From Thermotogota bacterium (GTDB lineage: Bacteria > Thermotogota > Thermotogae > Petrotogales > Petrotogaceae): 11,364 bases of DNA. The translations under genes and the position numbers were made by a program. The DNA is taken from assembly GCA_051748045.1 (NCBI GenBank), contig JBNJGY010000053.1:1-11364 (forward strand), in the 5' to 3' direction. Position 1 is the first letter of the stretch, and each line of letters begins with the position of its first letter. Positions 1,583 through 10,137 of this stretch are shown here, one piece after another. The notes below the pieces were generated by a model. It was given only the letters and a program-made list of their open reading frames with translations. It ran no database searches and was not told the origin of the DNA.

Positions 1583-3337
1583 TTATACCAATTTATTTAA
1601 AAATTCTCTTTCCAAGTAATCAAAACCTTTTTCCCAGAAACTTTCTTCTTTAATATTTATTCCAATTTCTTCTAGCAATTCTTCTGGAGATTTGTTACCT
1701 CCACTCATTAATAATTTCTTATATTTTGGAATAAAATCTTTTCCTTCTTCTTTATACATTTCATACAAAGCTATAACAAGTAAGTTTGCAAAATTATAAG
1801 CATATACATAGAAAGGAACACCAAATATGTGAGGGATTCCTGCCCATTCGTAATTATATTCTTCAGGGATTTCTACAGAATCTCCAAACATTATTTTCAA
1901 TTCTTTATTATATAAATCAGATAGTTCTTCCCATGTAGCCACACCTTTGTCTGCGATCATATCATGAGATTGAACTTCAAACCTTGCAAACATATTCTGT
2001 CTAAACATTGTCGCAAACATTTCCTCAGTTTTAGAAGCTATAAAAGCTTTTTTATCTTCTTCATTTAATGTTGGTAAAACTTTATCCATAACAAGCATTT
2101 CACCAAATACAGAAGCAACTTCAGCCATTGTCAACGGAGTGTGGTAATTCCATATATTTTGTTCAGAAGACAATGTTCCATGAACACCATGGCCTAATTC
2201 ATGAGCAAGAGTCATTACATCCCCCATGTTTCCATTGTAATTCATAAGAACAAAAGGTTTGTAATTTGGAACAGCGTAAGAACAGAATGCCCCGCCTCTT
2301 TTTCCTTTTCTTATCTCAGAATCAATTCTATTGTCTTCAAAGAAACCTTTTACAATATCTCCAATTTCTTTATCAAAATCATAATAAGCATCTAAAACAA
2401 TTTCTTTAGCTTGATCCCAAGTATATTCTTTCTTTACTGGGTTTAAAGGTGCATAAATATCTGCTAAAGTTAATTTCTCACCTATATATTTTTCTTTGAA
2501 TTTATAATACTTATGAACCAAAGGAGTCCTTTCTGTTGTAACTTTTATAACAGTATCAATGATATCGTCTTCAACTTCATTATCCAAATTTCTCATAGAA
2601 ATAGGTCTTTCAAAATTTCTAAGCCTACTTTCTGTATCATAATGTTTAACTATTGAATTATAAGCCTTTTCTATAATAATTTTATCTTCTTCATATCTAG
2701 AAAAGAATTTTTTCATAGCTCTCTTTCTCAGGTCTGAATCAGTATCATGTCTCAAAGCTCTAACTTGAGGGCCTGTTAAAGTTTTTACTTGACCATCAAT
2801 GTTCAATTCATATTCATAAGAAGATGTTTGCCTTTCATAAAGCTCAGCAAATGCTTCTCTTGAAGAGCTTGAAAGTGCTGAAATTACCTTTTCTGCTTCT
2901 TCAGAAAGAACATGTTCTTTTGATTCAATCAACTTTTCCATAACATGTTTATAATCATTTAGCTCTTTTGAATCTCTTAAATTTCTAAGTTTTTCTTCAG
3001 ATAATTTTAAAAGTCTTGGTCTCCAAAATGAAGTTATAATTGCTGCATTTGTTTCATAATCCTCTACCATAGACATCAATTTTTGCGCCTCTTGGTTCAT
3101 TGTATTTCTTGCGTAATTTAAATGAGCATATTGAGCAGCGAAATACCCTTGTTTTTCAACTCTTTCTGAGTCTTCAAAGAATTTTTTAAGTTTATCTGCT
3201 GATAAATTTTCATCTGCTAAAACGTCATAATAATCCTCTCTTAATAACTTACAACCCTCAACAAAACTTTCTAAATCTTTTTTTATTTGTGCATCTTTTT
3301 CAGATTCGTAAAAAAATGATAAATCCCAAGTAGCCAT
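1583..3337 (-). CDS. pepF: M3 family oligoendopeptidase (PepF-like)
   Basis: N-terminal WDLS, GKRGGAFC, zinc motif TLAHELGHGVH, AEVASVFGE and FYVYAY; 584 aa; GGGAGG RBS. Confidence 0.93.
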   Translation of the reverse strand: MATWDLSFFYESEKDAQIKKDLESFVEGCKLLREDYYDVLADENLSADKLKKFFEDSERVEKQGYFAAQYAHLNYARNTMNQEAQKLMSMVEDYETNAAIITSFWRPRLLKLSEEKLRNLRDSKELNDYKHVMEKLIESKEHVLSEEAEKVISALSSSSREAFAELYERQTSSYEYELNIDGQVKTLTGPQVRALRHDTDSDLRKRAMKKFFSRYEEDKIIIEKAYNSIVKHYDTESRLRNFERPISMRNLDNEVEDDIIDTVIKVTTERTPLVHKYYKFKEKYIGEKLTLADIYAPLNPVKKEYTWDQAKEIVLDAYYDFDKEIGDIVKGFFEDNRIDSEIRKGKRGGAFCSYAVPNYKPFVLMNYNGNMGDVMTLAHELGHGVHGTLSSEQNIWNYHTPLTMAEVASVFGEMLVMDKVLPTLNEEDKKAFIASKTEEMFATMFRQNMFARFEVQSHDMIADKGVATWEELSDLYNKELKIMFGDSVEIPEEYNYEWAGIPHIFGVPFYVYAYNFANLLVIALYEMYKEEGKDFIPKYKKLLMSGGNKSPEELLEEIGINIKEESFWEKGFDYLEREFLNKLV

Positions 3338-3377
3338 ACTTCTTCCTCCCTTTGAATAATAGTTAGTATCATAAATT

Positions 3378-3406
3378 ATTATACATCAGTTAACATTTTT
3401 TGTTAA
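3378..3406 (-). promoter_or_regulatory. Possible pepF promoter with an overlapping inverted repeat
   Basis: Minus strand TTAACA (3406-3401), 17 nt, TATAAT (3383-3378). TTAACA-n5-TGTTAA palindrome at 3390-3406. The AT-rich context lowers confidence. Confidence 0.4.
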
Positions 3407-3420
3407 ATAATATCTTATTG

Positions 3421-3472
3421 GTTGGAGTAGGAAAAAATCTTATAGCTTTTTCAGATGGAGGTTGGGAGAAAA
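3421..3472 (-). repeat. Degenerate heptamer tract (G-rich on the + strand)
   Basis: GTTGGAG at 3421 and GATGGAG-GTTGGGA-GAAAAT at 3454-3473, the reverse complement of the TTTTC-TTCCAAC-ATCCATC motif seen elsewhere. Confidence 0.55.
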
Positions 3473-3523
3473 TTTAAATAATAAACAATGATATAATATA
3501 TATAAAATGTTTTTACTAAAATA

Positions 3524-3659
3524 ATCTATAAATTTCCGTAGAAAATTGAATGGTTTTAGATTCTTCAGCTCCAAAAATCGTCGTTCAGAATTACAAATTA
3601 CTTATCTTTCTAATAATGTATTAAATATAAGGTATATTAAACATAAAAAAATGAAGAAA
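3524..3659 (-). repeat. Dispersed repeat containing a GTCA-type stem-loop (3558-3594); inverted copy of about 8947-9082
   Basis: 3558-3594 reverse complement GTAATTCTGAACGACGATTTTTGGAGCTGAAGAATCT matches 9005-9041 at 35/37. The flanks (aatttccGTAgaaaattgaa; ttacttatcttt.taat.atgtattaaatat) also match. Confidence 0.9.
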
Positions 3660-3723
3660 TATAAAAAAGAAAAGTATAGTGTTTTCTGAGTGAAACATCT
3701 TTTAAATCGAAAACTAATGCGTG

Positions 3724-3776
3724 TGTCATGTCGAGCATCGTCGAGACATCTCTTCAGTAAATTTTCGTAGAAAATT
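3724..3776 (+). repeat. TGTCA-type REP-like element E1
   Basis: TGTC-ATGTC-GA-gcatcgtc-GA-GACAT-CT-cttcagta-AATTTTC-GTA-GAAAATT; 49/53 identical to the reverse complement of 9054-9106. Confidence 0.9.
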
Positions 3777-3793
3777 GAAAGGTTTTTTAAAGG

Positions 3794-3860
3794 CTTAATT
3801 TCACTTTGTGAAATTTACTGATGGGTTTTCTCCATGCGCTGTCGCTTAGTCGAAATGACA
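3794..3860 (-). repeat. TGTCA-type REP-like element E2, forming an inverted doublet with E1
   Basis: Reverse complement TGTC-ATTTC-GA-ctaagcgacagcgcatg-GA-GAAAA-cccatcagta-AATTTCAC-AAA-GTGAAATT-aag; clear homologue of 8855-8926. Confidence 0.9.
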
Positions 3861-3890
3861 GTTGTAATAATTTTCAACACTTGTTTTTTC

Positions 3891-3945
3891 TTTCAACCTC
3901 CCTCATCCATCATCCAACAAAATAAATTTCTATGAAATTTATTTT
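3891..3945 (+). repeat. Heptamer tract x4 plus AT-rich hairpin
   Basis: TTTCAAC CTCCCTC ATCCATC ATCCAAC, then AAAATAAATTTC-tat-GAAATTTATTTT. Confidence 0.85.
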
Positions 3946-3964
3946 ATAAAAAAGGAGAATAAAA

Positions 3965-4432
3965 ATGGGATATATTTTTGATTTACGCAAACACATTGGA
4001 AGCAAACCAATAATAATGGTTGGAGCAGGCGTAGTAATACTCGACGATAAAAACAGAATTCTTCTTCAGAGAAGAAAAGACAATAATTCCTGGAGCCTTA
4101 TAGGCGGTTCCATGGAACCTGGTGAAACATTTGAAGAAACTGCTATAAGAGAAGCAAAAGAAGAAGCTGGAATAGATATTAATAGTTTAAAACCAATAAA
4201 AGTTTTTTCAGGAAAAGAAATGCATCATAAATATCCAAATGGGGATGAAGTATACAACGTTGCAAGTATCTTTTTAGTCACTTCATATACAGGTGAAATA
4301 ATAGTTAATGATCATGAAAGTCATGAACATAAATTTTTTGATATTAAAGAAATACCTTCAAAATTAAATCCACCAGATGCTATAATGATTAAATATATAA
4401 AAGAAAACCTTAACGCAATAAAAGAGGGATAA
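3965..4432 (+). CDS. NUDIX hydrolase
   Basis: Nudix box GGSMEPGETFEETAIREAKEEAGI (GX5EX7REUXEEXGU). YIFDLRKHIG and YPNGDEV are typical of a common MutT-like subfamily. AAGGAG RBS. Confidence 0.93.
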   Translation: MGYIFDLRKHIGSKPIIMVGAGVVILDDKNRILLQRRKDNNSWSLIGGSMEPGETFEETAIREAKEEAGIDINSLKPIKVFSGKEMHHKYPNGDEVYNVASIFLVTSYTGEIIVNDHESHEHKFFDIKEIPSKLNPPDAIMIKYIKENLNAIKEG

Positions 4433-4444
4433 TTATCCCTCTTT
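4421..4444. terminator. 24-bp perfect palindrome over both stop codons; probable bidirectional terminator
   Basis: AAAGAGGGATAA|TTATCCCTCTTT, followed by T-rich sequence on both strands. Confidence 0.7.
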
Positions 4445-5215
4445 ATTTTCAAAAAAATTTCTTAAAGCCAAACTAATTTTTTCTAAAAGAATATAAACGT
4501 CTCTTTTTTCATTCAATTTTTTCAAAGTCTGCCAGTAAATAAATAACCCCAGCACTGCTCCAATTTGATTCTCTATCAAATCACTCATAGTATCAGTAAG
4601 GCTCTCTTCTTGAGCCATTCTATACCCTTCATAATCTCCAAAAATAAGATCAGATGTAAACTCTCCTATTTCCCAAAAAACGCCTATCATAGCAACAATA
4701 GAAAACATATATATATATATTTTAAATAATAAAGTCTTTGAAATTGTTCTTGACCAAATTAATTCTGACCCTAAAACAAGTGGAAACAAAAAACTAACAA
4801 GCCACATTCCTCCAGTTATATGCAATATGTCATCGAATAAGGGATAACTGTTATAAAAACCTAGCCACATTCCAAAAAAACTATGTAGGGTTATTTGAAG
4901 TATAGAAAAAAACCTTATTTCTTCAAAAATTGTTGATTTAGTAACCCATTCAAAAACCCATATAAAATCAATCAACAAAAATGACAATAAATATCCTAAA
5001 AAATGAGGCAGATTAAAATTAATCGCTGAATGAATAACTGGTATCAATGCCACAAAAGAAAAAAACATATTAGCCCAACGAAAAAAAACAAAAAACTTAG
5101 TGTTGCTAGAAAAAAGGGTTTCTTTAACCTCTGTATCATTAATCAAAAAAAGATTTAATTTTATAATTGGTTTTCTTAATCTCTTTGCTATTTTTTTTAA
5201 TAAAATTGGTTGCAT
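4433..5215 (-). CDS. Polytopic membrane protein, hypothetical (DUF2238/YjdF-like motif pattern)
   Basis: Several hydrophobic segments with embedded polar motifs FDDILHITGG, WEIGEF and DTMSDLIEN. AAGGAG RBS. The family assignment is tentative. Confidence 0.7.
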   Translation of the reverse strand: MQPILLKKIAKRLRKPIIKLNLFLINDTEVKETLFSSNTKFFVFFRWANMFFSFVALIPVIHSAINFNLPHFLGYLLSFLLIDFIWVFEWVTKSTIFEEIRFFSILQITLHSFFGMWLGFYNSYPLFDDILHITGGMWLVSFLFPLVLGSELIWSRTISKTLLFKIYIYMFSIVAMIGVFWEIGEFTSDLIFGDYEGYRMAQEESLTDTMSDLIENQIGAVLGLFIYWQTLKKLNEKRDVYILLEKISLALRNFFENKEG

Positions 5216-5233
5216 TATTTACTCCTTTGTTAT

Positions 5234-5288
5234 AAAATAAATTTCTTTGTAATTTATTTTGTTGTTAGTTGGAGGATGGAGGTTGTTG
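5234..5288 (-). repeat. Heptamer tract x4 plus AT-rich hairpin (inverted copy of 3891-3945)
   Basis: Reverse complement CAACAAC CTCCATC CTCCAAC TAACAAC, then AAAATAAATTAC-aaa-GAAATTTATTTT. Confidence 0.85.
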
Positions 5289-5326
5289 GTTTTTATCTAT
5301 TTTAGTAGCTTAATAATGCTTTTTTT

Positions 5327-5375
5327 TTCCAACTTCCAACCATAAACCTTCAACAGAAATCATTTTATGATTTCT
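5327..5375 (+). repeat. Heptamer tract x4 plus hairpin
   Basis: TTCCAAC TTCCAAC CATAAAC CTTCAAC, then AGAAATCAT-ttt-ATGATTTCT; closely matches 9137-9185. Confidence 0.85.
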
Positions 5376-5498
5376 ACTTCACGACCTACTTTGAATTTTT
5401 ATATTTCAGAATTGAAATTGTTATTTTGTCTTTTTCTCTTTCAGCAAAAATAATAAATAAAAATAACGAACTATTGAGAATTATAATACAAAATTTAT

Positions 5499-5524
5499 GT
5501 AGGGGTGCCCCTTGTGGGTACCCG
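5499..5524 (+). repeat. GTAG-type REP (single copy)
   Basis: GTAG-GGGTGCCC-cttgt-GGGTACCC-G: a GTAG tetranucleotide followed by a GC-rich imperfect palindrome, the architecture of RAYT/TnpA-REP-associated REPs. Confidence 0.7.
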
Positions 5525-5668
5525 TGTAAAATGCGTTAAAAAAATTGTATGTCTGAGCTGATTTTTGCGAGTTTGCAATTTTTAGTATTTCCAAGTGATT
5601 GAAGATATTATTTTTTCAATAATTTGATCTAGTGAAGAGCGCTATTTATTATTTTTCAATATTTTATA

Positions 5669-5730
5669 AATTTTCTTCGAAAATTAACTGATGAGACCCT
5701 TACGACTCACTTCGTTCGCTCAGGGTGACA
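5669..5730 (-). repeat. TGTCA-type REP-like element E3
   Basis: Reverse complement TGTC-ACCCT-GA-gcgaacgaagtgagtcg-TA-AGGGT-CT-catcagtt-AATTTTC-GAA-GAAAATT. Confidence 0.85.
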
Positions 5731-5759
5731 CCTACAAAGATTTTCAACAATGTATTTTC

Positions 5760-5799
5760 TTCCAACATCCATCCTCCAACAAAAATTATGTAATAATTT
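5760..5799 (+). repeat. Heptamer tract x3 plus hairpin
   Basis: TTCCAAC ATCCATC CTCCAAC aa, then AAATTAT-gta-ATAATTT; ends 6 nt from the MFS stop. Confidence 0.8.
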
Positions 5800-5805
5800 C
5801 TACAC

Positions 5806-7074
5806 TCATTCCTGTTCTTGTCTTTCTCCTCTTTTTACAAATTGGAGAGTCACAAAGGCTAAAATAAAAAATAAAAACGAGAAAATCATCAATGTGTTGT
5901 AATCTAATATGTCCATAGATAATCCCGCTAATGGTGGTGCAAAAATATTAGCTGCCATAGAGAAAAAATAGTATAATCCAGTATATCCACCAGATTTTTC
6001 ATTTGTTGTCATATCTACTACCATTGGAAGTGCGTTAACATTTATCAATGCCCAACCCATACCACCAAAAGCAAATAAAACAAATAAAATATTTCTAAAT
6101 ATATCTGGAGTATTTAAAATATCAGAATTACCTAATATGTAAGTAACTATAATTACAGTAGATAGCATTACTAACCCTATATAAATTGTTTTTTTTCTCC
6201 CAATTTTTGCACCAATAAACCCTGAGGGAATCGCAAAAACCATAAAAACTAAAGAGAAAACTCCCATAATTAAAGCTCCTGTACTTTCTGGTATTCCAGC
6301 ATGAAATTTTGCATATGTGGTGAAAAATGTTTCTATAGCATTGAACCCAATAAACCAAAATAATATGGATAAAAGCATAAACAAAAGCGATTTTTCTTTA
6401 TTTGTGAAAGCATCTTTCAAATTACCCATTAACTCTACTAACCCATTTTTGAAAAATCCTGCTTTTTTCTCTATAGTAGTTTCTTTTATTGTATATTTAG
6501 GATCTTCTTTTATAAAAGTCAAAAGAACCATAACAGCACCAAGCATTATTATAGCGCCAGCAATGAAAGGAAAACTTTGATTGGCATCATATAACGGTTT
6601 CCCTGCAAAAAACGCCAGCAAGGCTCCGAGACCACCCATAAAATTAATAACACCATTAGCTTGGCTTCTAAATTTAGACGGAGTAACGTCTGGCATTAAA
6701 GCGACAACTGGGGATCTAAAAACAGCCATAAAAAAATTCATAAGAATTATTATAAACATCAATAACGGTAGTATCGAAAGATCTTTTATGATAGGTATCA
6801 AAACAAAAAATAAAGCTGCAAATGGTGCGCCAACCATTATATATGGTTTTCTTCTACCAAATTTTGTTCTTGTTTGATCTGACATCGCTCCTATTACTGG
6901 TAACATCAATATTGCGAATATATTATCAAAAGTCATTACAGTTCCAACCCAAAAAGAAGAAAGATCAAAAGATTTCAAAAAAATAGGAACATACGCATTA
7001 TAAAGAGGCCAAATTATACTAACCCCAAAAAACCCAAACCCCAAAACAAAAAGTTTCCAACTTTTAAATTTCAT
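5806..7074 (-). CDS. MFS transporter (SLC45/maltose-permease-like sugar:cation symporter)
   Basis: About 12 TM segments; GAMSDQTRTKFGRRKPYI motif A, FRSPVVALMPD, RSQANGVINFMGGLG and GGYTGLYYFFS. Confidence 0.9.
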   Translation of the reverse strand: MKFKSWKLFVLGFGFFGVSIIWPLYNAYVPIFLKSFDLSSFWVGTVMTFDNIFAILMLPVIGAMSDQTRTKFGRRKPYIMVGAPFAALFFVLIPIIKDLSILPLLMFIIILMNFFMAVFRSPVVALMPDVTPSKFRSQANGVINFMGGLGALLAFFAGKPLYDANQSFPFIAGAIIMLGAVMVLLTFIKEDPKYTIKETTIEKKAGFFKNGLVELMGNLKDAFTNKEKSLLFMLLSILFWFIGFNAIETFFTTYAKFHAGIPESTGALIMGVFSLVFMVFAIPSGFIGAKIGRKKTIYIGLVMLSTVIIVTYILGNSDILNTPDIFRNILFVLFAFGGMGWALINVNALPMVVDMTTNEKSGGYTGLYYFFSMAANIFAPPLAGLSMDILDYNTLMIFSFLFFILAFVTLQFVKRGERQEQE

Positions 7075-7084
7075 TATTTTCCCC

Positions 7085-7777
7085 CTATCTTAAAAAATTA
7101 ACTATTTCTTCTACCTCATCTGTTATAACTCCATCATAGTGTCCCTTTAACATTTTCAAATGTTCTATATTATTAACAGTCCATAAGAATATTTTGAGCC
7201 CATGAGATTTCCAGCTACCTATAAACTTTGAAGAATAATCGACTCCAAATTCAACAATTTTATCAATATATAGGTTCAAAGAATATAAATTTAAGTCTTC
7301 ATGGATTTTGTCAATATTTTTTAAAGATTCATAATCAACTAAAAGTCCTATTTTAACTTCTTTATCCAAATCTCTAATTATCTTAATTGCTTCAACATCA
7401 AAAGATGAAAACAAAGTATTTTCCAACAAACCAAAATTTTTAATAATTTCATAAGAGCCTACAGAAGATTGTTTTTCTTTTATTTCTAAATTATAATAAG
7501 TATCTTTTGGTAATTCTTCCAGAACTTCTTGTAACCGTGGAATAGATGGTTGTTTTTTTCTTAATTCTTCAAAATTCAAATTAATAATCTTAATTTCTTT
7601 TCCATCTTTATCCTTAAAAAAGTCATCGTGATGTATGATGACCACTCCATCTTTTGTAAGTCTTGCATCAAATTCAATGCCATCTGCACCATTTTCAAGA
7701 GCTTTCACAAAAGACAAAATTGTGTTTTCGGGAAATTTTGCTTTATAACCCCTATGTCCTAAAATCTTCACATCCAT
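7085..7777 (-). CDS. Glycerophosphodiester phosphodiesterase (GDPD/UgpQ family)
   Basis: GHRG, PENT, GADGIEFDARLTKDG..IHHD, NLEIK, SSFD, WTVN and GVITD motifs. Confidence 0.93.
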   Translation of the reverse strand: MDVKILGHRGYKAKFPENTILSFVKALENGADGIEFDARLTKDGVVIIHHDDFFKDKDGKEIKIINLNFEELRKKQPSIPRLQEVLEELPKDTYYNLEIKEKQSSVGSYEIIKNFGLLENTLFSSFDVEAIKIIRDLDKEVKIGLLVDYESLKNIDKIHEDLNLYSLNLYIDKIVEFGVDYSSKFIGSWKSHGLKIFLWTVNNIEHLKMLKGHYDGVITDEVEEIVNFLR

Positions 7778-7820
7778 TTTTAATCCCCCTTTTAATTTTC
7801 TTAATTATTAAAATTATATC

Positions 7821-7848
7821 AAAAAACTCTCGCTTTTCAGCGAGAGTT
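7821..7848 (-). terminator. Intrinsic terminator after the aldo/keto reductase gene
   Basis: Minus strand AACTCTCGCT-GAAA-AGCGAGAGTT-TTTT, 5 nt after the stop. Confidence 0.85.
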
Positions 7849-7853
7849 CTATA

Positions 7854-8714
7854 TTAAACATCTGGATGTGGAAAAACTGTATCATCAGCAAGATTACTAG
7901 CTTTTTCTTTTAAATATTCTTCTTCAGTTATTGAAAGAGGTTCAAATTCGTCTGCTGCATCGCAAGCCCATCTTAATAATTCTATATGACTTGGAGAAAC
8001 TGCTGTATCTACTCCTTTACTGAGAGTAAACCTCATTCCTAATTTAGCTTCTTCATAATTATCTACAGGTTTATACCAAGTTTTAGACCAATTTCTTTCT
8101 TCATCTTTTTTCCATTTTCTCTTTGCTAATGCTTTAAGGGCTATTATTCCCACGTTTTTCTTTTTTGCTAAATCTAAAACAGAATTACCAAAACCTTCTT
8201 TTAACCAAGATGCCCAATTAACAGGAAACATAATAGTATCAAAATCAAATCTATTCATCAATTCAAATGCTGCTTCTTCTGTGTGAGCAGAAAAGCCTAT
8301 ATAATTGATCAAACCTTCTTCTTTAGCTTCTAAAACAGCTTCCATAGCACCATTAGGCCCTAGGATTTTATCTACTTCCTCTTTTGAAACGATAGAGTGG
8401 AATTGATAGATGTCAAAGTAATTAGTTTTTAACTTTTTTAAAGAAGTTTCAATATCTCGTCTACATTCTTCTTTCTCAAGGGCGTCAGTCTTGCAAGATA
8501 AAACAACATCTTTTCTAAAAGGCTTCAAAGCAGGCCCCAATATCTCTTCTGAATTTCCATAACTGGGAGCAACATCAAAATAATTAACACCTCTTTTTAT
8601 CGCCTCTTCTACATATTTTGAAGCATTCTCTGCTGTTTCATCCATAACAACAATTCCACCAAACCCAACAACCGATACTTCTAAACCTGTTTTCCCCAGA
8701 ACTCTGTTAAACAT
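7854..8714 (-). CDS. Aldo/keto reductase
   Basis: LGKTGLEVSVVGFGG, NYFDVAPSYG (catalytic Asp/Tyr), SCK, YFDIYQFH and IGFSAH. Start moved from 8747 to ATG 8714 because GAGGTG lies at 8726-8721. Confidence 0.92.
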   Translation of the reverse strand: MFNRVLGKTGLEVSVVGFGGIVVMDETAENASKYVEEAIKRGVNYFDVAPSYGNSEEILGPALKPFRKDVVLSCKTDALEKEECRRDIETSLKKLKTNYFDIYQFHSIVSKEEVDKILGPNGAMEAVLEAKEEGLINYIGFSAHTEEAAFELMNRFDFDTIMFPVNWASWLKEGFGNSVLDLAKKKNVGIIALKALAKRKWKKDEERNWSKTWYKPVDNYEEAKLGMRFTLSKGVDTAVSPSHIELLRWACDAADEFEPLSITEEEYLKEKASNLADDTVFPHPDV

Positions 8715-8752
8715 AATAAACACCTCTTTTATAAAAAATAATAACAATTTTC

Positions 8753-8790
8753 TTCCAACATCGTTCCTCCTACAGAAACCTTTGATTTCT
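8753..8790 (+). repeat. Degenerate heptamer tract x3 plus hairpin
   Basis: TTCCAAC ATCGTTC CTCCTAC, then AGAAACC-ttt-GATTTCT. Confidence 0.7.
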
Positions 8791-8799
8791 TTGCATTAA

Positions 8800-8841
8800 T
8801 CCCCTCTAAATGTGTTAGAGGGGACGTGCGTAGCACAGGGG
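8800..8841 (+). repeat. CCCCTC-type GC-rich double hairpin
   Basis: TCCCCTCTAA-atgtg-TTAGAGGGGA, then GTGC-GTA-GCAC and AGGGG. Confidence 0.7.
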
Positions 8842-8854
8842 TATTTAGACTCTT

Positions 8855-8926
8855 TGTCATTTCGACTAAGATGCGTAGCATCGCATGGAGAAATCTCTTC
8901 AGTTAATTTCACGTAGTGAAATTAAG
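8855..8926 (+). repeat. TGTCA-type REP-like element E4
   Basis: TGTC-ATTTC-GA-ctaa-GATGC-GTA-GCATC-gcatg-GA-GAAAT-CT-cttcag-TTAATTTCAC-GTA-GTGAAATTAA-g. Confidence 0.9.
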
Positions 8927-9004
8927 ATTGTAAAACAATCAATTTTTTTCATCATTTTTTTATAAAATATATATTTAATACATAATTAAAAAGATAAGTA
9001 ACTC

Positions 9005-9106
9005 GTCATTCTGAACGACGGTTTTTGGAGCTGAAGAATCTAAAAACCATTTCAATTTTCTGCGAAAATTTACTGTATAGATGTCTCGACCATGCTCGAC
9101 ATGACA
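9005..9106. repeat. Inverted doublet of GTCA-type elements E6 (9005-9041, +) and E5 (9054-9106, -)
   Basis: E6 is GTC-ATTCT-GA-acgacggtttttggagct-GA-AGAAT-CT. E5 reverse complement is TGTC-ATGTC-GA-gcatggtc-GA-GACAT-CT-atacagta-AATTTTC-GCA-GAAAATT. Confidence 0.9.
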
Positions 9107-9136
9107 TATGCAAAGGTTTTTAGTCCGTGTTTTTTC

Positions 9137-9185
9137 TTCCAACTTCCAACATCCATCTTCCAACAGAAATCATTTCATGATTTCT
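9137..9185 (+). repeat. Heptamer tract x4 plus hairpin
   Basis: TTCCAAC TTCCAAC ATCCATC TTCCAAC, then AGAAATCAT-ttc-ATGATTTCT. Confidence 0.9.
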
Positions 9186-9432
9186 TTTCTTACTAAAATT
9201 ATAACAAATAAAATAAGTATAATATTAAAATTTTTTAAGCTTTGTTTGGTAAACTAACCTTAACTATAAATAACTATTGTATATAATTACTATAAACTTA
9301 GTTCAGATAAGAGTTATAAATTTAATTAGTAATGAAGAAAAAATAGTAAATTTATTTGTATTCAAATATTTAATAGTATAATGGATTGATGATAAATCCC
9401 ACATTTTGTTCCAAAAAGAAAAGGTGATAATT

Positions 9433-10137
9433 ATGAAATTGATGGAAATAAAGACAGACTACACTGCTATCTTTAAAACAAGACCAAACAGATATGTTGC
9501 AGAAGTTGACATACCTGAATTGAATCTAGAAAACGAAATAATACACGTTCACGACCCTGGAAGATTAAAAGAACTTTTATACCCAGGAAATAAAATTAGA
9601 ATAAAAAAAGCAACAAACCCAAAAAGAAAAACAAAATGGGACCTTATTGCAGCAGAAAAAAACAATGAAGAAATAATGGTAAACTCTGCTTATCATAGAA
9701 ATATAAGCTATTTTATTCTAAACAACGAGAACATAAACCCTCTTGGAAAGCTTAAAAACATAAAAGCAGAAGTAAAATACAACAAAAGTAGAATTGATTA
9801 TTTAGTAGAAAAAGCAAAAAACAAAAAAATCTGGATAGAAATAAAAGGTTGTACTTTAACAGAAAACGGAATTGCAAAATTTCCCGATGCGCCTACTCTA
9901 AGAGGTAGAAAACATTTAGAAGAATTGATGCAAATTATAGAGGAAGGCGGAAACGCTGCAATTTATTTATTAGTTTTCGGAAAAAGTGAATGCTTCAAAC
10001 CAAATATGGAAACAGACACGAAATTTGCAGAAACATTTTACAGAGCTATGAAAGCTGGTGTTGAAATATACCCAATTCAACTTTCATACAACAAAGGAAT
10101 CATATCATACGAAGGTATTTTGCCTATATGTGAATAA
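9433..10137 (+). CDS. sfsA: DNA/RNA nuclease SfsA (sugar fermentation stimulation protein)
   Basis: RPNRY, HVHDPGRLKELL, RKTKWDL, EVKY..SRIDY, IEIKGCTL and FPDAPTLRGRKHLEEL. Start moved from TTG 9406 to ATG 9433 because of the AAGGTGA RBS at 9421-9427. Confidence 0.93.
   Translation: MKLMEIKTDYTAIFKTRPNRYVAEVDIPELNLENEIIHVHDPGRLKELLYPGNKIRIKKATNPKRKTKWDLIAAEKNNEEIMVNSAYHRNISYFILNNENINPLGKLKNIKAEVKYNKSRIDYLVEKAKNKKIWIEIKGCTLTENGIAKFPDAPTLRGRKHLEELMQIIEEGGNAAIYLLVFGKSECFKPNMETDTKFAETFYRAMKAGVEIYPIQLSYNKGIISYEGILPICE

Follow-up and report, generated by a model that had tools for sequence, protein, structure and literature searches.

Here we describe a modular palindromic repeat in the intergenic spacers of a Thermotogota bacterium. 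The stretch analysed (the window) is the complete contig C53, 11,364 nt long, of draft genome G000 (2.41 Mb in 158 contigs, 28% G+C), and three of its spacers, all unusually long (3338–3964, 5216–5805 and 8748–9405), each carry a composite element that runs from a stem-loop ending in TGACA through a linker of 29–30 nt and a tract of heptamers to a terminal cap hairpin. We conclude that the composite probably belongs to a modular family of palindromic repeats located between genes, of the repetitive extragenic palindromic (REP), bacterial interspersed mosaic element (BIME) and REP-doublet (REPIN) kind, selfish or near-neutral DNA that has spread within a single Thermotogota genus. Alignment, folding and genome comparison demonstrate homology over the whole unit, modularity, covariation of the stems, restriction to one genus, gain and loss of copies between congeners and a consistent grammar of dimers. 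The family is new but of a known kind, and not a new kind of system: a preliminary description of the window had not recognised a described element in the composite and had named it the best candidate for a new system, a view that is too strong, since its organisation parallels that of published REP dimers and BIMEs (PMC3733652).

Direct reading of the sequence places the three composites where they had been described, with TGACA ending at 3860, 5730 and 9106, followed by exactly 30 nt (3861–3890), 29 nt (5731–5759) and 30 nt (9107–9136), every one ending in TTTTC, and then by three to four TTCCAAC-type heptamers and a hairpin with a 3-nt loop (Table 1). We refer to the left module, from a first hairpin (P1) to TGACA together with the linker, as X, to the heptamer tract with its cap as Y, and to a covariance model of X as R1. 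Alignments of 39 and then 37 near-full copies reveal that stem-loop, linker, tract and cap form one homologous repeat of ~150 nt. Within X the order is P1 hairpin, two bases, an 8-nt core CTGAWGAG, a second hairpin (P2), the TGACA tag and the conserved linker. P1 has 7–8 bp and a 3-nt loop and occurs as AATTTCAC/GTGAAATT, AATTTTC/GAAAATT or AATTTGC/GCAAATT; the two bases after it are TA in 45 of 60 X copies, and the core reads CTGATGAG (21/60), CTGAAGAG (15/60) or CTGATGGG (12/60), with reverse complements CTCATCAG (21/60), CTCTTCAG (15/60) and CCCATCAG (12/60) that are C-rich and contain CCA in some versions only. The 5-bp outer stem of P2 exists in many compensating versions (ATGTC/GACAT in 16 of the 60 copies, ATTTC/GAAAT in 9, ATCCT/AGGAT in 5, ACCCT/AGGGT in 4, and others), begins with AT in most types (exceptions ACCCT and ACCTT), and encloses an inner part of 11–31 nt, in five types, and a conserved internal loop, TC opposite TC, seen in 40 of 60 copies. 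As the preliminary description had noted, the stem variants differ among the three composites (P2 types b, c and a), and so do the cap hairpins. TGACA, or TGTCA on the opposite strand, does not vary in any of the 37 aligned copies, and the linker (..TTTTTAACAATGTTTTTTA) can be aligned over the same number of copies and is also found after X where no tract follows. Y consists of two to four G-free heptamers (TTCCAAC, ATCCATC; variant TAACAAC), then CAACA, then the cap GAAATnnn-loop3-nnnATTTC, mostly followed by TA(C); among 60 caps matched by regular expression, some of them spurious and within genes, TAC follows the stem in 20 and TA in 31, and in the GTAG tag that this could represent on the reverse strand the G is the first base of the cap stem. 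Two ribozyme- or motif-like readings of X were rejected: the core recalls the hammerhead ribozyme, but GACA replaces the required GAAA, an extra G precedes P2 and stem III has no partner, and a kink-turn formed by CTGAWGAG...GACA was discarded on sequence logic.

Searches of the genome revealed that the composite recurs far beyond chance. Comparison of the three spacers with the genome by blastn gave 354 alignments, with a depth of up to 52-fold at 3848–3867, and an nhmmer profile seeded on the three composites, which themselves scored E = 3e-33 to 7.5e-36, found 92 genome matches at E ≤ 1e-3. A second round yielded 116 matches at E ≤ 0.01 on 43 of the 158 contigs, covering 12,612 bases (~0.5% of the genome). 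The proposal that two repeat types are coupled into one unit of ~130–150 nt is supported by the 38 of these 116 matches that span X to cap; the whole unit travels together, but its modules also occur separately, with 27 matches comprising X plus linker without a tract and 18 comprising tract plus cap alone. Other repeat modules can succeed X plus linker in place of the tract, and two more recur 3′ of the cap (TAC..GACCTACTTTGA..TATATTTCGGAATTG and ..CTTGTGAAGAGCGCTATTTATTATTTT). The same mosaic is present in the window, where the description of one element per intergenic region on the plus strand holds for full-length copies but not for the partial modules in the same spacers, which include X copies on the minus strand, Y modules without X on either strand (Table 1) and a degenerate Y at ~3421–3475 on the minus strand. 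Only 10 of the 116 matches overlap an open reading frame (ORF) by more than 30 nt, so that the family is nearly all intergenic, and 36 of the 116 lie ≤300 nt from a contig end, a zone that makes up 3.9% of the genome; the repeat family breaks the assembly. R1, the module grammar, the tag and the dimer rule described below supply a defined structural model for a family that fragments assemblies, and annotators can use it to mask the modules and avoid naming them small RNAs or regulatory sites.

The constant distance between TGACA and the tract had been predicted to appear as a sharp genome-wide peak, and such a peak was obtained. Among 168 tract-like sites, 53 have a same-strand TGACA ≤200 nt upstream, and 23 of these 53 fall at 28–30 nt, with a tract definition that begins one base before that of the preliminary description; the control word ACAGT gave 12 matches and a flat distribution with no bin above 1. 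This motif-based count superseded one with separate hidden Markov models, which under-detected tracts (51 of 76 X copies with none). Smaller groups lie one or two heptamers (+7 and +14 nt) beyond the main peak and arise where the first heptamer is degenerate, without any variation in insertion. What keeps the spacing constant is the conserved sequence of the linker, with which the distance is inherited. A sharp peak at 28–30 nt would also be expected if, as had been suggested, one repeat guided the other to insert at a measured distance, but that mechanism is unneeded and extremely unlikely: the 29–30 nt between the repeats are conserved and common to copies, the linker remains on X when modules other than the tract follow, and the +7 and +14 nt offsets have the explanation just given.

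Dimers, stem constraint and genus restriction

X copies are preferentially combined head to head. Sixteen head-to-head pairs account for 32 of the 76 X copies, and in all 16 the P1–P1 gap is 16–18 nt and the TGTCA/TGACA tags are outermost; other arrangements are rare (2 tail-to-tail, 6 tandem). Every head-to-head pair is a heterodimer of a CAC/P2-b arm and a TC or GC/P2-a arm. Dimers with Y on both sides are imperfect palindromes of ~250–300 nt (~290 bp), dimers fold into long imperfect hairpins of −50 to −99.5 kcal/mol, and folding of full dimers reveals terminal inverted repeats like those of MITEs (miniature inverted-repeat transposable elements). Y modules can also pair with each other, as the two opposing copies in the spacer 5216–5805 form a heptamer-armed hairpin (fold of 5225–5385, −37.3 kcal/mol). 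This hairpin stands upstream of a gene for an unknown membrane protein; after it come a cap hairpin, then a Shine-Dalgarno sequence and the ATG.

Both stems of X are conserved as pairs. Across 60 of the 76 X copies, the remaining 16 being left out for N, contig ends or a degenerate core, Watson-Crick pairs make up 440 of 453 positions in P1 and 283 of 300 in outer P2. In an alignment of 60 copies from three genomes that was fitted by the model to the hand-given structure, and so leans towards that structure, 96.2% of stem cells pair and 118 cells carry double changes, compared to 38.1 in shuffles (0 of 500 shuffles reach 118), with slid controls pairing at 22–54%. RNAalifold recovered only 4 pairs from the raw MAFFT alignment because the two P1 types are misaligned there. 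Between nearest-neighbour copies (24 pairs) the P1 stem differs by 4.3%, P2 by 5–9%, the P1 loop by 28% and the linker by 29%, and GACA does not differ at all (0%). Stem mismatches include 3 G-T and 7 A-C, and with no excess of G-T over A-C the pairing gives no hint of which strand folds.

The family is restricted to one genus and turns over within it. R1 matches X at E ≤ 0.001 in G000 (75 copies) and in two genomes of the same genus, G001 (16) and the 68% complete G002 (7), and found none at this threshold in 28 genomes from 14 other genera of the order. The tract–cap junction occurs 30 times in G000, 43 in G001 and 4 in G002, and 0–4 times in other genomes (controls 0–1), making Y commoner than X in G001 (43 junctions versus 16 X). 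Cores in G001 are often decayed (ACTGATCAG, ACTTATGAG and others), while P1, P2 and TGACA are kept, with new compensating versions of P1. Several loci differ between species: the window from 3410 to 4436, holding the repeats of the first spacer and the NUDIX gene, is reduced at the orthologous G001 site to 35 bp joining the flanks; composite 2 and its neighbours (~5420–5805) are missing in G001, where the Y copy at 5320–5375 is conserved; and a dimer locus on contig C19 measures 520 bp in G000 and 114 bp in G001. The first of these is an indel of gene plus repeats between species. A collection-wide pattern scan found at least 97 stretches, about the chance estimate, with one Thermotogaceae metagenome-assembled genome carrying three among the matches listed.

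Relation to described repeats

We compared the family to known repeats by their published organisation, starting from CGTC-tagged REPs. These carry a terminal unpaired tag CGTC (variants TGTC and CCTC), continuous stems of 8–9 bp starting A-T, T-A, loops of 4–5 nt and an unpaired tail near CCA; their tags-outside (HH) dimers predominate, are often heterodimers and have conserved spacers with up to two small stem-loops; and they fall into subfamilies with compensatory stem changes and uneven copy numbers among relatives and have no known dedicated transposase (PMC3733652). They are reported from two Thermotogae, Kosmotoga olearia and Mesotoga prima (Di Nocera et al. 2013, PMC3733652). X shares a TGTC-type unpaired tag beside a stem that mostly begins A-T, T-A, heterodimers with tags outside and a conserved spacer holding two small stem-loops, compensatory stem subfamilies, unequal copy number among related genomes and the absence of a known dedicated transposase (PMC3733652). 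Its unpaired tail, CYCA/T when CTGAWGRG is read as the reverse complement, is likewise short and C-rich and may correspond to the published one, although only some versions contain CCA. Unlike the repeats described there, P2 consists of a 5-bp outer stem, the TC/TC internal loop and an inner part of 11–31 nt, dimensions outside the published stem and loop sizes, and X is attached to an 8-nt core, linker, heptamer tract and cap. A scan of the sister family for the published CGTC repeats with the pattern CGTCATN{15,30}ATCCA was near control in most genomes.

BIMEs of Escherichia coli are mosaics of two REP types in alternating orientation with conserved linker motifs between them (PMC2817692). 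The present family is alike in pairing two arm types head to head over a fixed conserved centre, in shuffling further modules and in being intergenic, and it differs in having no sequence relation, longer arms (~65 nt each) and AT-rich hairpins with 3-nt loops. The E. coli elements have IHF and gyrase as protein partners. REPINs of Pseudomonas, which are accompanied by a REP-associated tyrosine transposase (RAYT), resemble it as inverted doublets forming a long hairpin and in the presence of a single-copy Y1 transposase gene in the genome; here, unlike there, the RAYT-like gene is not flanked by the repeats and is absent from repeat-bearing congeners. MITE-like structured repeats include Correia/NEMIS, ERIC and the pneumococcal BOX and RUP elements. 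With these the family has in common imperfect palindromes of 100–300 bp, a BOX-like modularity, co-transcription with neighbours and strain variation, whereas neither target duplication nor a parent insertion sequence (IS) with matching ends was found. Short tandemly repeated repetitive (STRR) heptanucleotide sequences of cyanobacteria are likewise short tandem heptamers in intergenic DNA, but the tract here has only 3–4 units, always with a specific cap hairpin after it, and is mostly coupled to X. A search of the whole window against Rfam at E ≤ 1 left the composite unmatched and gave only two matches, both weak and unrelated: one SprD-like at 5414–5523 (E = 0.011) and one to an Enterococcus small RNA (E = 0.33). 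A literature search, within the full texts that it reached, turned up no description of the X/Y family in Petrotogales-type genera.

The best match is to the organisation of a REP/BIME dimer: judged from the published organisation, the family appears to be built and to work like one, and it is not a proven member of CGTC-3. This would extend tagged palindromes of the REP/BIME type to a second Thermotogota lineage, in a variant that couples the tagged hairpin to a heptamer tract.

Mobilisation, copy age and placement relative to genes

The preliminary description offered a non-autonomous mobile element as one explanation, and genus restriction, unequal copy number, presence and absence at orthologous loci and nearly exclusive intergenic placement agree with it, but no cognate transposase or target duplication was found. 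In the reading that we prefer, copies of this selfish or near-neutral repeat would spread through a trans-acting single-strand DNA enzyme that recognises hairpins, or through recombination between copies; the spreading machinery would require the conserved stems, core and tag, and inserted copies would enter neighbouring transcripts, where their hairpins could affect mRNA ends. Three groups of observations weigh against that reading: the results on insertion sites and enzymes, the age of the copies, and their placement relative to genes and transcripts.

Comparison of orthologous loci for insertion boundaries, with inspection of cap ends and of two orthologous comparisons, gave no target-site duplication and no clean border between filled and empty sites; the flanks at the compared sites are repeat modules themselves. 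No multi-copy transposase ORF was found in the draft, where collapsed IS copies could escape detection among the 158 contigs. Five multi-copy ORF groups were present, and the six sequences inspected from them read by eye, with no scan against a family library, as chemotaxis receptors, glycosyltransferase-like proteins and a decarboxylase subunit. TnpB-type genes had no match in G000. The only Y1 transposase gene of G000, at 4949–5716 of contig C82 (L007 1444–2214), encodes a RAYT-like protein scoring 79.2 bits on NF047646, below the cut-off of 80; copies of the repeat had been expected to flank a candidate enzyme, but this gene lies between its own 12-nt inverted repeats GGGTCGGACCAA, and C82 holds no X or Y match. 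With the C82 protein as query, none of the family's 18 other genomes, among them the repeat-bearing G001 and G002, yielded a RAYT-like gene.

These results make it quite unlikely that X is a REPIN-like element mobilised by the RAYT-like Y1 transposase, found within the genus only in G000. Such an enzyme would account for the X counts of 75 versus 16 and 7, the protein comes close to the family cut-off, the gene's presence in G000 and none of the 18 others follows the same direction, head-to-head dimers resemble REPINs, and the reverse-strand cap reads GTA-G(stem), with TAC after 20 of the 60 caps matched by regular expression, some of them false and inside genes. The gene is flanked by unrelated inverted repeats, however, the repeats occur without it in G001 and G002 (the latter only 68% complete), and the G000 copies are not young. 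Distant RAYT-like relatives (26–32% identity) are present in 11 of 12 genomes of the sister family.

A further candidate source of hairpins armed with inverted heptamer tracts, as at 5225–5385 and in full dimers, is a cassette carrying the '23S rRNA intervening-sequence protein' (PF05635), of which these hairpins would be gene-less copies. This origin is very unlikely, as PF05635 was not found in G000 or in any of the 18 other genomes of the family, G001 and G002 included, and is multi-copy in 11 of 12 sister-family genomes (up to 20 in G024), which lack X. In that sister family (G019–G030) the 11 of 12 genomes with RAYT-like genes are not exactly the same as those with PF05635; in G026 a PF05635 gene and a RAYT-like gene lie ~1 kb apart (C1:702844–704541).

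The copies in G000 are old, with a median nearest-neighbour identity of 0.85 and only 3 of 40 at 0.95 or more. Stem conservation may therefore reflect a function at the level of the host and not mobility. Relative to co-directional flanking genes, Y is antisense in 15 cases and sense in 3 (binomial p = 0.0075) and single X is antisense in 12 and sense in 4 (p = 0.077), two counts that overlap. Eight of 23 caps facing a convergent gene lie at −3 to +5 nt of its stop codon, the 8 genes encoding 196–562 aa, and the adjacency has a rough binomial probability of 2.5e-5 under uniform placement over 150 nt; the stop codon of the MFS transporter gene has the same position in G001, which lacks the element. 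Several Y modules end 20–50 nt upstream of a start codon with a Shine-Dalgarno sequence. RNA-library contigs from four metatranscriptome runs of two studies cover 5340–5894, in the second spacer, without mismatch, and another covers 8695–8933 with no mismatch, while their cover of genes is patchy; these contigs are without strand, ends or level and may contain DNA, the runs were picked by shared words, and uncovered parts mean nothing.

Orientation bias, stop-codon adjacency and RNA cover are as compatible with a role at the level of transcripts as with selfish DNA. The element could act mainly as RNA, its family consisting of cis-acting modules of untranslated regions or of small RNAs, and the hairpins and tract would then govern the stability of mRNAs, their termination or their translation. 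In this account, possible though improbable, the relevant strand would be the reverse complement of the one first described and would read cap hairpin, GUUGGAA tract and UGUCA-P2. The strong stem covariation with variable loops is what such a role would produce, and the TC/TC loop of P2, which becomes GA/GA on the reverse strand in 40 of 60 copies, may there be a tandem G.A motif. Against it, copies occupy both orientations and every type of spacer, G-U is not in excess over A-C in the stems, the core decays in G001, copy number differs about five-fold between species with orthologous sites lacking copies, and Rfam holds no matching family. The orientation data would be accounted for just as well if single-strand transposition had a replication-strand bias. 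A role as promoter or terminator was rejected, as a consensus scan was at background (promoter-like 30 versus 32.0, terminator-like 2 versus 2.4); of the 2 intrinsic terminator sites in 3300–9500, against 2.4 expected, neither is a cap, and caps are AT-rich and followed by TAC. The best promoter-like sites, at 3378–3406 (−, 11/12) and 9260–9287 (+, 10/12), fall between the repeats and the genes for the peptidase and SfsA, and the repeats are therefore upstream of likely promoters in those two spacers.

Both sets of properties could also belong to one element. In this rather improbable scenario the genus would have domesticated the repeat as a transcript-level device on the opposite strand, and the same hairpins would be substrates of a hairpin-specific single-strand DNA enzyme that spreads them. 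Placed directly behind stop codons, a tight 3-nt-loop hairpin, with the GU-rich heptamer tract and the tagged P2 with its tandem G.A loop after it, would determine the 3′ ends or the stability of mRNAs, or cause ribosomes to stall at termination. A REP of E. coli placed right after a stop codon reportedly has such an effect. Orientation bias and stop-codon adjacency provide a testable handle on the old question of whether repeats of this sort influence transcripts or are simply tolerated.

Features of the window

The genes of the window are ordinary and encode a photolyase, a DUF1722 protein, an M3 oligopeptidase, a NUDIX protein, the unknown membrane protein, an MFS transporter, a GDPD protein, an aldo/keto reductase, SfsA and a DUF389 protein; a search for loci related to the peptidase gene found no relative. 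The repeat modules and the genes that adjoin them are listed in Table 1.

Table 1. Repeat modules and neighbouring genes in the window, with strand and distinguishing features
Feature	Position	Strand	Details
X module, TC-type P1, P2 type a, no tract	3701–3778	−	R1 39.5 bits; head-to-head heterodimer with 3795–3860, P1–P1 gap 18 nt
X module, composite 1	3795–3860	+	P1 AATTTCAC-TTT-GTGAAATT, TA, core CTGATGGG, P2 type b short, TGACA; R1 101.9 bits over 3795–3889
Linker, composite 1 (..ATTTTCAACACTTGTTTTTT)	3861–3889	+	aligned with 36 further copies
Y module, composite 1	3890–3945	+	G-free tract 3890–3918, cap 3919–3945; 20 nt before the NUDIX start codon at 3965
NUDIX gene	3965–4432	+	
Unknown membrane-protein gene	4433–5215	−	
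Y module	5215–5285	−	directly upstream of the unknown membrane-protein gene, whose start codon is at 5215; inverted repeat with 5320–5375
Y without X	5320–5375	+	tract and cap 5356–5374; conserved at the orthologous G001 site
X and linker, composite 2	5667–5759	+	P1 AATTTTC-TTC-GAAAATT, core CTGATGAG, P2 type c, TGACA 5726–5730; R1 64.5 bits; absent from the orthologous G001 spacer
Y module, composite 2	5760–5800	+	tract and cap 5782–5800; cap stem ends 5 nt from the stop codon (5806–5808) of the convergent MFS gene
MFS transporter gene	5806–7074	−	
Aldo/keto reductase gene	7854–8747	−	
Short Y-like module	8747–8790	+	ATTTTCTTCCAACATCGTTCCTCCTACAGAAA.. and a small hairpin; 88% to reference copy
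X and linker, no tract	8830–8925	−	CAC-type P1, P2 type b long; upstream of and on the same strand as the aldo/keto reductase gene; R1 79.8 bits
Further repeat module	8958–9045	+	88% complementary to 3554–3641; degenerate P2-like piece CGTCATTCTGAACGACG adjoining composite 3
X and linker, composite 3	9052–9135	+	degenerate core CTGTATAG, P2 type a, TGACA 9102–9106; R1 45.5 bits
Y module, composite 3	9136–9184	+	four heptamers, cap GAAATCAT-TTC-ATGATTTC 9166–9184
SfsA gene	9406–10137	+	

Two other repeat modules share the spacers with the composites. The stretch 5446–5600 is a separate module with a strong hairpin GGGTGCCC-CTTGT-GGGTACCC that occurs in 6–13 copies by blastn depth and is present in G001 too; it lies inside the stretch covered by the RNA-library contigs of all four runs, and the weak SprD-like match falls on the minus strand here. 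At 8800–8825 there is a G+C-rich hairpin module, CCCCTCTAAATGTGTTAGAGGGG, whose relatives (CCTCTGAAACATTCAGAGG and similar) precede X copies in G000 and G001.

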